Counted from the first letter of the stretch, positions 27,456 to 30,899 are shown. The stretch is 64,000 bases of DNA from Escherichia coli (GCF_003334355.1 NZ_QOWP01000021.1), one strand, 5' to 3'. Notes: generated from the sequence alone by a model not told the origin. Numbers and translations: made by a program.

Positions 27456-29840
27456 TTATTTGATTGTTGGCTCATCGCACTTGGGTAGCCAGTCTGCATT
27501 ACTTTCCTCTTTTAAAGTGAGGTTAGTCTGCATTCCCTGATTAGTTCGCCGTTTCTCATAATGTAGCCCGTACTCCTTCAGCATGACTGGCAACCCTTTG
27601 CCAAACATCGTAAGACTCAGGGTGTTTTTATATCCATTAGCCTCCATGTATACGAGGTAGGCATGGTAAAGGTAGGTACGTGGCTGGCGTGGGACAATAT
27701 TGGCGTTCCCCATAAACATGCCGTTGGTGTCAGGTAATGCCTCAAGATAGCCACAAAAATCAAATGCTGGATCAGCATCACGCTTGATGGTGAGAGCCTC
27801 ATCAGAATTCTGCTGCGACTGAAGCAATGTTCTGGCGCTCATCGGATCGCTGAAACGCTGCATGAGCTGGCGAACAATCACAGCCAGTTCTCGTGCAATT
27901 TTATCTTTCAGCTGCGGATCGCGTTCTTCCGGTGCTATCTGCTCAGGAAAATGCAGAATAACTCTCCTGCGGGACACACCACCACTGCGATCAGTGAAGC
28001 GCATAGGATTATTATTTACGGCCAGGATAACCGCCGGAATATGTGTTGAATAAGCATTCTGATATTTGGGGTCCACCGATACCGCATCGCCACCAGTTAT
28101 AGCCTTAAGCCCGGCGCCGTCGCCGCTCCACTTCTCCTGATCAGGCAGGCGAATAAGAGAAAAACCTATCAGAGCCGCACGTTCTCGCGGGGACTCCAGC
28201 GTTTCAATGGTCGCAGAGGTGGCGTTATCCTCTCCAGCAAGCATGGTCGCAATTTCAGCCAGAATACTTTTGCCACTTCCACCAGGGCCAGTCACTTCCA
28301 GAAAGAGCTGCCAGTCATAGCGATTCGCCAGCACCATAAATAACGCCGCAAGAATAATGTCGCGTTTTTCTGGCTTGTGTCCGGCAGCCCGGTCCAGCCA
28401 GCGCCAGAATGCCGGGGCATGAGTTTCAAGCGTTTCCCCCTCTACCGGTGGCGTGAAATCGACTTCACACAGGGTACGCAGCCAGTTCTCTTTACAGTGC
28501 GGACTAAACAGCCCTGTTCGCGTATCGAGGACGCCATTACGAAAACCGATCAGATGACGTGCCGGATTTTGCTGCTGCGGAACAATTAACTTTAATGTTT
28601 CCACCAGTGAAGCAATTTTTCCTGAGGAAAACGGTGCACCGAGGCGCTGGAAAAGGGCTGCGACATCTCGGGCAAAATCTGACTGAGAAATCACTTTCCA
28701 TGCTCCAGACTCGTAGCGGGATAAAAGCTGCCCGTTCGGATCAACCGCCAGTGCATCCCTGTAATGCTCCCGAACCCTCTGAGCTTTTTCGCTGACACTC
28801 ATCGCTGTGAATTCTGCTTCACTCATTGTGTCGAAAGGACTGGCGTTATGTGGCTTCAAAGCCTCAAGAATTGCCTTCCGGGTGGATTCCTCTCCGTATT
28901 GGGTAAGCGCATCATTCCAGTCACCAAAAACCGGTGGCAGCACAATGTCACACTGACACGCTTTTGCAGCAGTTTCAGCCCTGTTCTGGCCTGAACCATT
29001 CAGATCGCGGTCCGCTGCAATAATTAACTGATATCCCGGATACTTGTTATGGGCAACGCTGGCCAGAGAAAGAAAGTTGACCGACGAAAATGCCACCATG
29101 ACGGCTTCTCCTGTCAGATGACGAATGGTAAGCGCCGTGGCGTAACCTTCCGCAATCCATATCCTTCTTACAGAACTCCCGCCCCCTTCTATCAGATGAT
29201 AGGCCTCCTTAACCTGACCTCCTTTAAGAAAACACTTGCTACCATTGCCACTGATAAGCTGAATATTCACCAGTTCCCCGTCAGCGTTATAGAGCGGGAC
29301 GATCAAATCACCGGGGCGGAACATCACCCCACCGGTTTTATGACCTGAAGTCAGCTCATGGCAAATATGCTCCGGGAAACCTTTATGTGTAAGATAAGTA
29401 TTTCCGGCAGATTCACGCGAGGCTTGCAGTAGTCGCGCGGCAAGTGCTGCCGCCGCCTGTTTCCCGCCATCTGTATCTGCGGTTGACGTCCAGACTCCAG
29501 AAGAGGCTGAAGACAGACTATGTGTCAGTCCATGTATCCTGTCTGCTGCTTCACTGATATCCACATTCAGTACCTTGCTGACAAGCGCTAAACCGTCCCC
29601 AGCCCCGCACTGGTTGCAGAACCATGTTCCACGTCCTTCCAGATCGTCGAAGCGAAAACGATCTTTACCGGCGCAGACCGGACAAGGCTGATGGCGATTT
29701 TTCAGTATGTTCATACCCAGCGCTGGCAAAATCCGCGCCCAGTGACCGCGGGCAGCCTTCACGGCCTGACTGACTTTCATTCCTGACATGATGCAGTTCT
29801 CCCTCAGTGTAAAACCGGCTTTATAATGTGACGGACGCAT
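27456..29840 (-). CDS. P4 alpha-like bifunctional primase/helicase (zinc-binding primase + P-loop NTPase)
   Basis: 794-aa ORF with [14 protein letters not shown]...CNQCG zinc-binding motif and Walker [11 protein letters not shown]; true start may be an internal Met (MSGMKVSQ). Confidence 0.85.
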
Positions 29841-30127
29841 AACTCATCCATTACGGCTATTCCGAGCTGGGAGAGTGCGGGGCAGGACATTAGAGGACCG
29901 GATTCCATCAGGTCTGAAAGCAGGGCGCAGGCGATTTCCATGCCTTTTGTTTGCCCGTGCTGTCGCAGATAAAAACCTTCAAGCTCACGGGCAATGGCGG
30001 TTTCAATTTCATCCAGAGTGAGCTGCAGGTGGCGGTTGTGCTGATGGCAGATACTCAGCCAGGCGCAGGCAACCGCGCGGCGATATAACGCCAGCCGAAG
30101 TGAGAGGGGAAGAGTGCGTGATTTCAT
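29804..30127 (-). CDS. Hypothetical P4-like island protein (107 aa)
   Basis: Co-directional with alpA and primase; start overlaps the upstream ORF stop by 4 nt (translational coupling). No motif recognised. Confidence 0.5.
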
Positions 30128-30351
30128 TGCACCACCTCCTTGTTCATCAGGTCATCCTGGCAACGCTGTACCACGCCATCAAGCTGTTCTGTCATCAGAT
30201 AAATCAGGGAAACCAGTTGCTCACATTGAGCACCTGCAGGTTTTTCATAGCAGTCCTGAAGAACAGCCATTCCGGTGACAAATTCCCCCACGTTACGAAG
30301 ATGCTTGAGGCGGACAATATCGTCATAAGAAATTGCGGCGTGATTCATCAC
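30124..30351 (-). CDS. Hypothetical P4-like island protein (75 aa)
   Basis: Co-directional small ORF with 4-nt overlaps on both sides. Confidence 0.5.
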
Positions 30352-30899
30352 ATCACCTCCCCGGCAGGCAGCCGTGCAGAAAGGGAGAGCACATAATCAC
30401 GGACCAGCGAAAGGCGTGCAAAGCGCTCATCGCAGGCCACGGTGCGAAGCATACAGATGCGGGGTTGAGTGTCAGCACGGCGGATTGCGGCAAGCACAAA
30501 GACATATTGCGGGTAAAACGGGGTGAGGGTTGTAGCCATGATGGCAGCCTCCATTGAGTAGCGGTTATTGCTACCACCGGAAACGCCAATTTCACTGGTG
30601 GCAGCCCGAACGGGGTTGGCGTAACCGGCCTCAATGGATACCGGCCAGCCCGAAGGCTGCCCCGCCCGGACTGCCATTATCTCGAAAGAACCACGGTGTA
30701 CGCATAAACACCACAGCCTGGAAAATGGGTGTGCCAGAGCTTCGACGAAAAAAAAGACGCTTGGCGCGTCTGGTGTCGCCATTGAGTTTCGCGGAACGCC
30801 AATTCCGGCTGCCGATTTTGCGGCAGCGGAAAAACTATACCTGGAAATGACTGCAGGATGCAAGCCAGAAAAATGGGGATTAATGCGTTCAGGCATCAT
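30348..30899 (-). CDS. Hypothetical P4-like island protein (up to 183 aa)
   Basis: Start codon overlaps the alpA stop in a TAATG arrangement at 30897-30901; start and length uncertain. Confidence 0.4.

Follow-up and report, generated by a model that had tools for sequence, protein, structure and literature searches.

A C4-type RNA cassette, a putative read-through frame and a conserved small protein between alpA and the primase of a P4-like satellite in Escherichia coli

Gene order and overlapping frames

The window, meaning the whole stretch of DNA that was analysed (64,000 nt of Escherichia coli, GCF_003334355.1 NZ_QOWP01000021.1), carries a P4-like element, as an earlier note on this DNA had held, with alpA, a primase, sid/psu/delta and an integrase adjoining ssrA. 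E. coli D3 and 789 carry the identical element. Between alpA and the primase lie three minus-strand open reading frames of 183, 75 and 107 aa (ORF1 to ORF3), and the coordinates previously given for them were borne out. Taken together with the family and RNA assignments described below, the interval 29804-30899 very probably corresponds to that section of the 'left' (early) operon which leads from immunity to replication in a P4-like satellite integrated beside ssrA; alpA would be the first gene on the late-promoter transcript. The features of the locus, with the basis of each assignment, are as follows.

30899-31159, minus strand: alpA, homologue of P4 vis (ORF88) (excisionase/regulator phrog, RefSeq)
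30348-30899, minus strand: eta-like putative read-through ORF (ORF1), 183 aa (ORF listing, homology to P4 eta)
30834-30863, minus strand: putative PLE-like constitutive promoter inside eta (conservation)
30747-30827, minus strand: leader RNA, IsrK / P4 seqA-type (Rfam)
30594-30681, minus strand: C4 / P4 CI-type antisense immunity RNA, 88 nt (Rfam)
30548-30591, minus strand: downstream target pair, equivalent of P4 seqC / P1 a2-b2 (complementarity to a' and b')
30348-30539, minus strand: kil / icd-like gene, 63 aa, in frame within the 3' end of eta (NCBIfam)
30124-30348, minus strand: ORF2, 74 aa (phrog_10110)
29804-30127, minus strand: cnr homologue (ORF3), 107 aa, DUF5375, equivalent of P4 ORF106 (Pfam)
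27456-29789, minus strand: alpha primase-helicase, last gene of the operon (phrog_2249, DNA primase, 1e-223)

The frames are chained by overlapping stops and starts, as originally described. The alpA stop TAA (30901-30899) and the eta ATG (30899-30897) share a base in TAATG, GTGA at 30351-30348 forms the eta/ORF2 junction, and at ATGA (30127-30124) the cnr start overlaps the ORF2 stop. ORF2 is listed as 30124-30351 and 75 aa when started at GTG; the ATG at 30348 (TGATG, 1-nt overlap, 74 aa) is the likelier start, since GGAGG at 30360-30356 is then normally spaced and the RefSeq start is the same. The primase probably starts at 29789, the position to which the RefSeq start corresponds and which lies 15 nt past the ORF3 stop, and not at 29840.

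Comparison across P4-like elements, one of the checks proposed in the earlier note, found the ORFs and their overlapping junctions kept across about 100 related elements, a sample chosen by exact match to the C4 core that is biased and not phylogenetically independent. Among 68 non-identical related loci, the ORF2/cnr overlap was 4 nt in 61 and 1 nt in 7, and the eta/ORF2 overlap was 4 nt in 60 and 1 nt in 6, while the alpA/eta junction reads GCATGATGAT (an ATGA overlap) in 66 of 105 loci. The chain of overlapping ORFs is not due to chance. Frames on the opposite strand (30333-30557, 30554-30850 and 30634-31038) had been named as alternative coding frames, and these ORFs do exist in the window. 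Over the span of ORF1, however, none of the three antisense frames was stop-free in any of 97 loci, the average being 4-7 stops, and all of the family, RNA and homology evidence lies on the minus strand, so that there is next to no chance that the real genes run on the plus strand. The plus-strand ORFs were rejected on conservation.

The RNA cassette and the eta frame

Rfam C4 (RF01695, clan CL00128) was matched on the ORF1 strand with 84.6 bits against a gathering threshold of 45, covering model positions 1-87 of 87. Upstream of it, Rfam isrK (RF01394) was matched with 76.7 bits against a threshold of 50, the model starting at 30827, and c4-a1b1 (RF03163) reached 45.9 bits, just below its threshold of 46.7. 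P4 itself yielded the same three Rfam elements in the same relative positions. The putative PLE-like promoter consists of a -35 TTGCAT (30863-30858), an N18 spacer and a -10 TATAGT (30839-30834); the IsrK model begins 7 nt downstream of this -10, and transcription is predicted to start at about 30827. An alignment of 21 sequences revealed largely conserved -35 and -10 blocks and a variable spacer. The promoter was not called by a consensus promoter scan because its -35 is weak, and its placement therefore comes solely from conservation.

The leader contains the targets a1 (AAUUGGCGUU, 30804-30795) and b1 (CUCAAUGG, 30786-30779), followed by an intrinsic terminator whose hairpin was found by a terminator scan (stem 30771-30755, then a T8 run, to 30747). 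Two segments of the C4 RNA are predicted to be single-stranded, b' (CCAUUGAG, 30637-30630) and a' (CGCCAA, 30621-30616), and further targets lie downstream, a2 (AAUUGGCGUU, 30591-30582) and b2 (CUCAAUGGAGG, 30558-30548). Both target pairs (30804-30779 and 30591-30548) are exact complements of a' and b'. Within b2 lies the Shine-Dalgarno of kil, GGAGG (30552-30548), which precedes the kil ATG (30539) by 8 nt.

The structure of the C4 RNA, a long closing stem around two hairpins (27 pairs), is retained throughout the related loci: 100% of 810 pair cells from 30 distinct sequences were standard pairs, compared to 29-52% in slid controls. Compensatory changes were observed in 5 pairs, all in the closing stem; helices 2 and 3 (the inner hairpins) are invariant by construction, since the loci were picked by exact C4-core match. 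Fifteen b' types and six a' types were distinguished across 108 loci, and in 93 of these the resident RNA fits each of the four targets, i.e. RNA and targets covary. Variation in the RNA and its four targets falls into two specificity segments that can be swapped separately, which would make the cassette a compact natural system for the evolution of heteroimmunity between competing satellites. No survey of seqA/seqB/seqC diversity beyond PMC8628076 was found in the literature.

This cassette (leader, C4/CI RNA and targets) underlies two thirds of ORF1, which is 57% identical to the P4 eta ORF. A single frame spans it, the 3' end being a nested gene of ~65 codons with its own Shine-Dalgarno. 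No stop interrupts the eta frame in 94 of 97 loci, whereas each of the other five frames is free of stops in 0-2 loci. In 86 of 105 loci the frame shared by kil and eta runs uninterrupted back to the alpA stop; the corresponding counts for the two remaining frames are 1 and 0. For the remaining 19 loci, the kil frame is closed before the alpA stop, many having alpA ~200 nt further upstream; coupling to alpA is therefore not universal. All length differences in the variable spacer of eta are multiples of 3 (357, 360, 363 and 402 nt).

The two ends of ORF1 are under different selection. Over the first 120 codons dN/dS is 0.63-2.7, about 1, with depressed dS, versus 0.15-0.24 in the kil part, indicating purifying selection there. 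Only the last 63 residues carry the Icd-like domain: NCBIfam NF033153 (phage_ICD_like) matches residues 12-58 of the 63-aa protein with 61.7 bits (cut-off 25), and in P4 this protein aligns to the C-terminal 65 residues of the eta ORF. By analogy, the last 63 codons of eta would encode Kil, an inhibitor of host cell division resembling Icd; in P4, overexpression of Kil kills or filaments cells, according to a passage in PMC10111431 that cites Forti et al. 1999. ORF1 differs from an ordinary protein gene in that only its last 63 codons behave as protein. Within the first 120 codons, translatability is selected and the amino-acid sequence is not. This pattern fits the P4 model, in which translation of eta from the late promoter would override termination imposed by RNA; a passage in PMC10111431, again citing Forti et al. 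1999, describes suppression of termination by eta translation in P4.

Two other readings of ORF1 were weighed against these data. RefSeq annotates the full 183 aa as an 'Icd-like protein', Pfam Phage_ASH matches residues 21-125, PHROG 6928 likewise covers most of the length, and the frame is conserved, all as expected of an ordinary protein in which amino acids matter throughout and the RNA matches are incidental. Such a protein is very improbable, as the neutral dN/dS range and low dS of the first 120 codons set beside the Kil part, the confinement of the Icd-like domain to residues 132-178, and a conservation that follows RNA logic (paired columns, and loops that covary with targets) all speak against it. 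Furthermore, the '137-aa cI protein' of P4 is this same frame, and P4 cI is an RNA. Conversely, since the first 120 codons lack amino-acid selection, eta might never be translated, its openness being a by-product of G+C-rich, RNA-constrained sequence and kil, ORF2 and cnr the only genes; in many loci a second sense frame is indeed open across some of the region. This reading is also improbable, if slightly less so, because the five control frames from the same sequence are stop-free in so few loci, indels in the variable spacer keep the frame, and the ATG overlapping the alpA stop is conserved. The P4 genetics described in the passage of PMC10111431 likewise favour translation. Eta as a frame kept open for translation across an RNA cassette, with Kil as its protein-coding end, is thus the preferred reading.

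Two annotations are affected by this reading of eta. Under the names 'Icd-like protein' and 'Phage_ASH', most of the 183-aa ORF overlies an antisense-RNA immunity switch. Similarly, PF10554, by which epsilon was marked in the survey of PMC8628076, tags the eta/CI-RNA region and not a helper derepressor; of the sampled loci, only about one in five had true epsilon (PF25738). The locus is a typical representative of a system already known and its value is mainly corrective, the gains being this correction of annotation and the conserved ORF2 protein.

Cnr, ORF2 and the epsilon slot

The earlier note had left all three ORFs without a function and suggested profile searches and structure prediction. 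These identified the families of ORF1 (the eta/RNA cassette with Kil) and ORF3 (the Cnr family), so that the description now holds for ORF2 only, for which they returned a helical hairpin with no informative match. ORF3 is 69% identical to P4 ORF106 and is matched at full length by Pfam PF17345 (DUF5375; residues 3-107, 6.7e-48). Its dN/dS of 0.10-0.18 indicates purifying selection, and the family is found directly upstream of alpha in about 104 of 108 loci. P4 Cnr acts on copy number through alpha, its known target. We take P4 cnr to be ORF106 (Terzano et al. 1994), an equation that follows from prevalence logic and background on P4; a direct statement that cnr is orf106 was not found in the literature. 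The cnr family is present in 90% of P4-like elements and cnr controls the plasmid copy number of P4 (PMC8628076).

ORF2 corresponds to phrog_10110 (PHROG 10110). Fifteen of its residues are invariant among 20 homologues, and dN/dS is at most 0.19-0.28, indicating purifying selection. An AlphaFold2 model gave a two-helix hairpin (pLDDT 77), a shape that holds little fold information. Using a profile built from the ORF2 alignment, a search of 1.8 billion protein representatives returned only 32 matches, mostly short proteins or fragments along with a few weak matches to much longer proteins, and no informative remote relatives or homologues of known function. Foldseek comparison of the model with PDB and BFVD gave no match below E = 3. 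ORF2 appears to belong to a 75-aa family whose function is unknown, which P4 lacks and which 61% of P4-like elements carry (Moura de Sousa and Rocha 2022, PMC8628076); its size and its position between the PF10554 gene and cnr/alpha agree with that family, and no difference was found. Nothing on the function of the 75-aa protein was found in the literature beyond PMC8628076. What is new for ORF2 is the purifying selection, the predicted helical hairpin, the conservation of the overlaps on both sides, and its near-exclusivity with true epsilon. These data suggest that ORF2 is a real, early-expressed two-helix protein that would be translationally coupled between kil and cnr.

The slot occupied by ORF2 does carry epsilon in P4, as implied by the proposal in the earlier note of an epsilon-like derepressor at this position. 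ORF2 itself proved unrelated: it has no similarity to epsilon or orf151 by BLASTP, and hhalign of its family with the epsilon, orf151, Cnr and Kil families gave probabilities of at most 1.2%, the value obtained for epsilon. Nor did tblastn of P4 epsilon (Pfam PF25738) against the whole window recover a homologue (E at least 2.4), epsilon and orf151 both being absent from the window, and no remnant of ORF2 was detected in the 135-nt orf151-cnr gap of P4. As for the anti-defence genes also envisaged for this position, neither NCBIfam nor PADLOC returned anything for ORF2 and ORF3, so a defence or anti-defence role is unsupported.

Across 122 unique loci, the architecture with ORF2 only was the commonest (74 loci), followed by epsilon-orf151 only (21), and a single locus had both. 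The corresponding Fisher odds ratio for co-occurrence of ORF2 and epsilon is 0.008 (p = 5.5e-13, uncorrected for phylogeny). Tentatively, ORF2 may replace epsilon-orf151 functionally, manipulating the helper or the host, and it is a still more tentative suggestion that it represents a previously unrecognised class of satellite factor that manipulates helper or host and does the job of epsilon (with or without that of orf151) in most P4-like satellites. That job may, for instance, be to neutralise the repressor in P2-like helpers beyond the reach of epsilon. Such a role would explain the shared slot and the near-absent co-occurrence (74 : 21 : 1), and the widespread ORF2 would be the obvious first candidate for how most P4-like satellites handle helper repression. 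The idea of substitution is weakened by the one locus (L027) that carries both epsilon-orf151 and ORF2.

The main alternative to this substitution is replication control, with ORF2 acting as a second subunit alongside Cnr and alpha rather than on the helper. In all of 68 loci the stop of ORF2 overlaps the start of cnr, an arrangement typical of stoichiometric partners, and the position of ORF2 is within the operon's replication half. Yet P4 controls its copy number by Cnr alone, having neither ORF2 nor a remnant of it, and across loci ORF2 is anti-correlated with epsilon-orf151 and not with cnr. An AlphaFold2 prediction in which a GS linker connected ORF2 with Cnr, from a paired alignment of 37 rows, also gave little encouragement (pLDDT 50, pTM 0.35), although this was a weak test made without PAE. 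Overall, a replication subunit is conceivable but rather unlikely. The fused model was worse than that of ORF2 by itself and gave no confident complex.

Proposed switch and comparison with known systems

A two-state switch can be proposed for the operon, for which termination, RNA processing, translational override, cell killing and copy-number control are carried over from the genetics of P4, P1 and Gifsy-1. In the immune state, the constitutive PLE-like promoter within ORF1 would yield a leader RNA, and the 88-nt C4/CI-type RNA (30681-30594) would be excised from the leader transcript by RNase P and would confer superinfection immunity. Its segments CCAUUGAG and CGCCAA would pair with the leader targets (30804-30779) and the downstream targets (30591-30548). 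Such pairing would cause premature termination at the leader terminator (30771-30747) and further downstream and would also mask the kil ribosome-binding site, thereby keeping kil, ORF2, cnr and the primase off. In the activated state, a helper phage would switch on the late promoter upstream of alpA, and ribosomes ending alpA would reinitiate at the overlapping eta ATG. Translating on through the RNA cassette, they would block termination by the RNA structures and by Rho, so that the operon would be read through; for the first 120 codons of eta it would be translation itself that counts and not the peptide. Kil would then inhibit host cell division, and Cnr would restrain replication via the primase/initiator alpha.

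The left operon of P4 has the order vis(orf88) - eta/[PLE, seqA, cI RNA, seqC, kil] - epsilon - orf151 - cnr(orf106) - alpha. The element described here shares this gene order and strand, the coupling of the alpA/vis stop to eta, and a nested Kil with its own Shine-Dalgarno. It differs in that the epsilon/orf151 slot is filled by the 74-aa ORF2, absent from P4, and in a spacer between leader and RNA that is 39 nt shorter. Furthermore, the specificity segments of P4 are CCUGUGAA and UUCUCAC, compared to b' CCAUUGAG and a' CGCCAA here, and the two elements should therefore be heteroimmune.

Similar features are found in the immI operon of phages P1/P7 (a1 b1 - c4 RNA - a2 b2 - icd - ant), which has in common with the present locus the strong match to the C4 covariance model and the upstream and downstream target pairs, the latter covering the ribosome-binding site of an Icd-like gene. 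The cargo of P1/P7 is an antirepressor, whereas here it is ORF2-cnr-primase, and the cassette here lies within a long alpA-coupled read-through ORF, a feature of P4. For Salmonella Gifsy-1 (IsrK - orf45 - anrP; PMC4825925), the likeness lies in the leader, which matches IsrK including the terminator of the short isoform. The short RNA of Gifsy-1 activates translation of an antirepressor in trans (PMC4825925), whereas the leader of the present element is read as a seqA-type target of the C4/CI RNA.

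Anatomy of the ORF chain and its RNA cassette

The three minus-strand ORFs that the earlier note placed between alpA and a P4-type primase are present as described, according to ORF listing and gene-family matches, and their overlapping junctions were all read in the sequence (TAATG at 30901-30897, GTGA at 30351-30348 and ATGA at 30127-30124). This anatomy stood, while the accompanying label of unknown function fell for every protein except ORF2.

30899-31159: alpA, upstream flank of the chain
30348-30899, minus strand: ORF1, 183 aa
30124-30351, minus strand: ORF2, 75 aa when counted from GTG
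29804-30127, minus strand: ORF3, 107 aa

For ORF2 the ATG at 30348 is a better start than the GTG, since it puts GGAGG (30360-30356) at a proper distance and is also the RefSeq choice. For the primase, RefSeq points to 29789 as the most likely start.

ORF1 is an RNA immunity cassette within a read-through frame, with the following elements.

30863-30834: candidate promoter, TTGCAT-N18-TATAGT, blocks largely conserved and spacer variable
30827-30750, minus strand (that of ORF1): IsrK, Rfam 76.7 bits against a gathering score of 50
Inside ORF1, minus strand: a1/b1 target model, Rfam 45.9 bits, just below the gathering score of 46.7
30804-30795 and 30786-30779: leader target pair, AAUUGGCGUU and CUCAAUGG, exact complements of the C4 segments
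30771-30755: stem of an intrinsic terminator, followed by T8, after the leader targets (terminator scan)
30681-30594, minus strand: C4 antisense RNA, Rfam 84.6 bits against a gathering score of 45
30637-30630 and 30621-30616: single-stranded C4 segments, CCAUUGAG and CGCCAA
30591-30582 and 30558-30548: downstream target pair, AAUUGGCGUU and CUCAAUGGAGG, exact complements

The IsrK model begins 7 nt downstream of the candidate promoter; a consensus promoter scan did not call this promoter, which is therefore regarded as putative. The CUCAAUGGAGG site contains the GGAGG serving an internal ATG at 30539, which opens a 63-aa protein with the entire Icd-like domain (NF033153, residues 12-58) that aligns to the 65-aa C-terminus of P4 eta, i.e. 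Kil. The same three Rfam elements occupy the same relative positions in P4, and ORF1 shares 57% identity with the P4 eta ORF, within which an older annotation wrongly placed a "cI 137-aa protein".

The Pfam family Phage_ASH (PF10554) corresponds to residues 21-125 of ORF1 (30525-30839) and represents the translated CI/C4 RNA cassette; this part is under no amino-acid selection, and the corresponding stretch of comparison locus L002 is 3889-4176. True P4 epsilon falls in a separate family, PF25738, and was found in just 22 of the approximately 108 loci sampled here. A survey of P4-like satellites used PF10554 as its epsilon marker (PMC8628076), so "epsilon" in that survey means the eta/CI-RNA immunity region.

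ORF3 is a full-length DUF5375 protein with 69% identity to P4 ORF106, probably the product of cnr. Cnr reportedly acts on the alpha initiator, limiting plasmid copy number. The family lies directly upstream of alpha in approximately 104 of 108 loci. PMC8628076 reports that 90% of P4-like elements have, between alpha and the PF10554 gene, a family to which P4 cnr belongs; ORF106 alone fits this prevalence, since epsilon and orf151 occur in only about 20% of loci.

Covariation and selection across related loci

Related loci were gathered through protein similarity (24) and exact RNA-core match (about 120), yielding 122 distinct cores. Across 30 distinct C4 sequences, all 810 pair cells were standard, compared to 29-52% paired in slid controls, and compensatory changes occurred in five closing-stem pairs; the invariance of the inner hairpins is due in part to locus selection by exact RNA-core match. 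The 108 distinct loci carried 15 variants of the first specificity segment (b') and 6 of the second (a') in 35 combinations, and in 93 of them all four targets were exact complements of the resident RNA, the pattern expected of a specificity-determining antisense system. The segments (30616-30637) and targets (30779-30804 and 30548-30591) form two independently assorting segments across loci L004-L147, an arrangement resembling a modular code for heteroimmunity that recombination has shuffled. A literature search found no survey of b'/a' segment and target diversity.

The 120 codons preceding the kil ATG had a dN/dS of 0.63-2.7 with depressed dS, which argues that the N-terminal two thirds of ORF1 is constrained as nucleic acid and not as protein; values were 0.15-0.24 for Kil, at most 0.19-0.28 for ORF2 and 0.10-0.18 for Cnr. 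This 120-codon part of the eta frame was nonetheless stop-free in 94 of 97 loci, compared to 0-2 loci for the other five frames, and its length differed by multiples of three only (357, 360, 363 and 402 nt). Traced upstream, the frame met no stop codon before that of alpA in 86 of 105 loci, compared to 1 and 0 loci for the two remaining sense frames, and the eta ATG overlapped the alpA stop in most.

According to the account in PMC10111431 that cites Forti et al. 1999, P4 eta is coupled to the alpA homologue, transcripts from a constitutive promoter inside eta are terminated via CI-RNA pairing, full-length eta translation from the late promoter blocks termination, and Kil is a truncated eta product. 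Judged by sequence, an open, alpA-coupled frame lacking amino-acid constraint is what this model would predict. Among the 19 exceptional loci of the 105, many have the alpA stop approximately 200 nt further upstream of the eta-frame start (including L036, L043, L055, L056, L073, L081, L084-L086, L090, L091 and L117), making coupling to alpA impossible there. Locus L015 has an alpha primase broken into ORFs of 212 and 556 aa (4108-6443), probably a pseudogene or sequencing frameshift.

ORF2 and the epsilon-orf151 module

ORF2, which is conserved across its family and had been described before, is still the sole protein of the chain without a function. It belongs to PHROG 10110, a small family restricted to Enterobacterales, with 18 clusters at 90% identity and 32 representatives among 1.8 billion proteins. 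Fifteen residues are invariant across 20 homologues, the protein is under purifying selection, and AlphaFold2 predicted two long helices (residues 8-33 and 39-73, pLDDT 77); a structure search gave no fold match to this model, and NCBIfam gave no match to the protein. The earlier note had named epsilon-like derepressors as genes held at this position in P4-like elements, which was not borne out for this chain: sequence and profile comparison found no similarity of ORF2 to epsilon, orf151, Cnr or Kil, and neither epsilon nor orf151 occurs anywhere in the window. The note also mentioned anti-defence genes as possible occupants of the position; PADLOC gave no match for ORF2.

The order AlpA-Kil-ORF2-Cnr-Alpha was present in 74 loci and AlpA-Kil-Eps-Orf151-Cnr-Alpha in 21, with both modules in one and neither in a few (odds ratio 0.008, p = 5.5e-13, calculated without phylogenetic correction). 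Because of this near-exclusive architecture and the lack of epsilon and orf151 in the window, the reading ranked first, tentatively, is that ORF2 may be a functional alternative to the epsilon-orf151 module. Ranked second, and somewhat more doubtful, is a role as replication-control partner of Cnr/alpha. The overlaps of the ORF2 start with the eta-kil stop and of its stop with the cnr start are kept in nearly all loci, and prediction of ORF2 and Cnr joined by a linker was poor (pLDDT 50, pTM 0.35). In the sole locus with both modules, L027 (IMG/VR, 1003-2934), a 281-aa ORF joins the eta frame, in frame, to an epsilon-like C-terminus; next come an orf151-like gene, a member of the ORF2 family and cnr.

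Satellite context

This is a common and unremarkable example of the P4-type operon for immunity and replication, and it has an immunity specificity of its own; mechanism beyond sequence anatomy, covariation and selection would be carried over from P4, P1 and Gifsy-1. Of 5426 complete E. coli genomes searched by megablast, 1351 contain the stretch, and 548 of these have at least 80% of it. The genes that RefSeq annotates in an identical copy make up a complete P4-like satellite, with primase, DUF5375, a hypothetical protein, an "Icd-like" gene and alpA and, divergent from these, the sid-position gene, psu, ogr/delta, Hachiman-type cargo (HamA and helicase) and integrase. The Hachiman-type defence cargo (34076-37600; a HamA C-terminal-domain protein and a DEAD/DEAH helicase) occupies the delta-integrase interval, a reported P4 defence hotspot (PMC9122126).

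TGT-N12-ACA dyads, sites of the Ogr/Delta activator type, were located at 31256-31273, 31983-32000 and 32021-32038. The two that are exact stand ahead of the sid-position gene, an arrangement shared with P4 Psid; another, with a single mismatch, is found approximately 100 nt before alpA, at the place of the late promoter PLL in P4.

The integrase adjoins the tmRNA gene ssrA (39566-39928; integrase-ssrA stretch 38181-39928), and ypjA/autotransporter pseudogene fragments lie on the primase side of the satellite (RefSeq). Past ssrA, at approximately 41900-43500, RefSeq annotates two hypothetical genes together with another integrase and a phage repressor of the CI type, a set that suggests tandem elements at ssrA.
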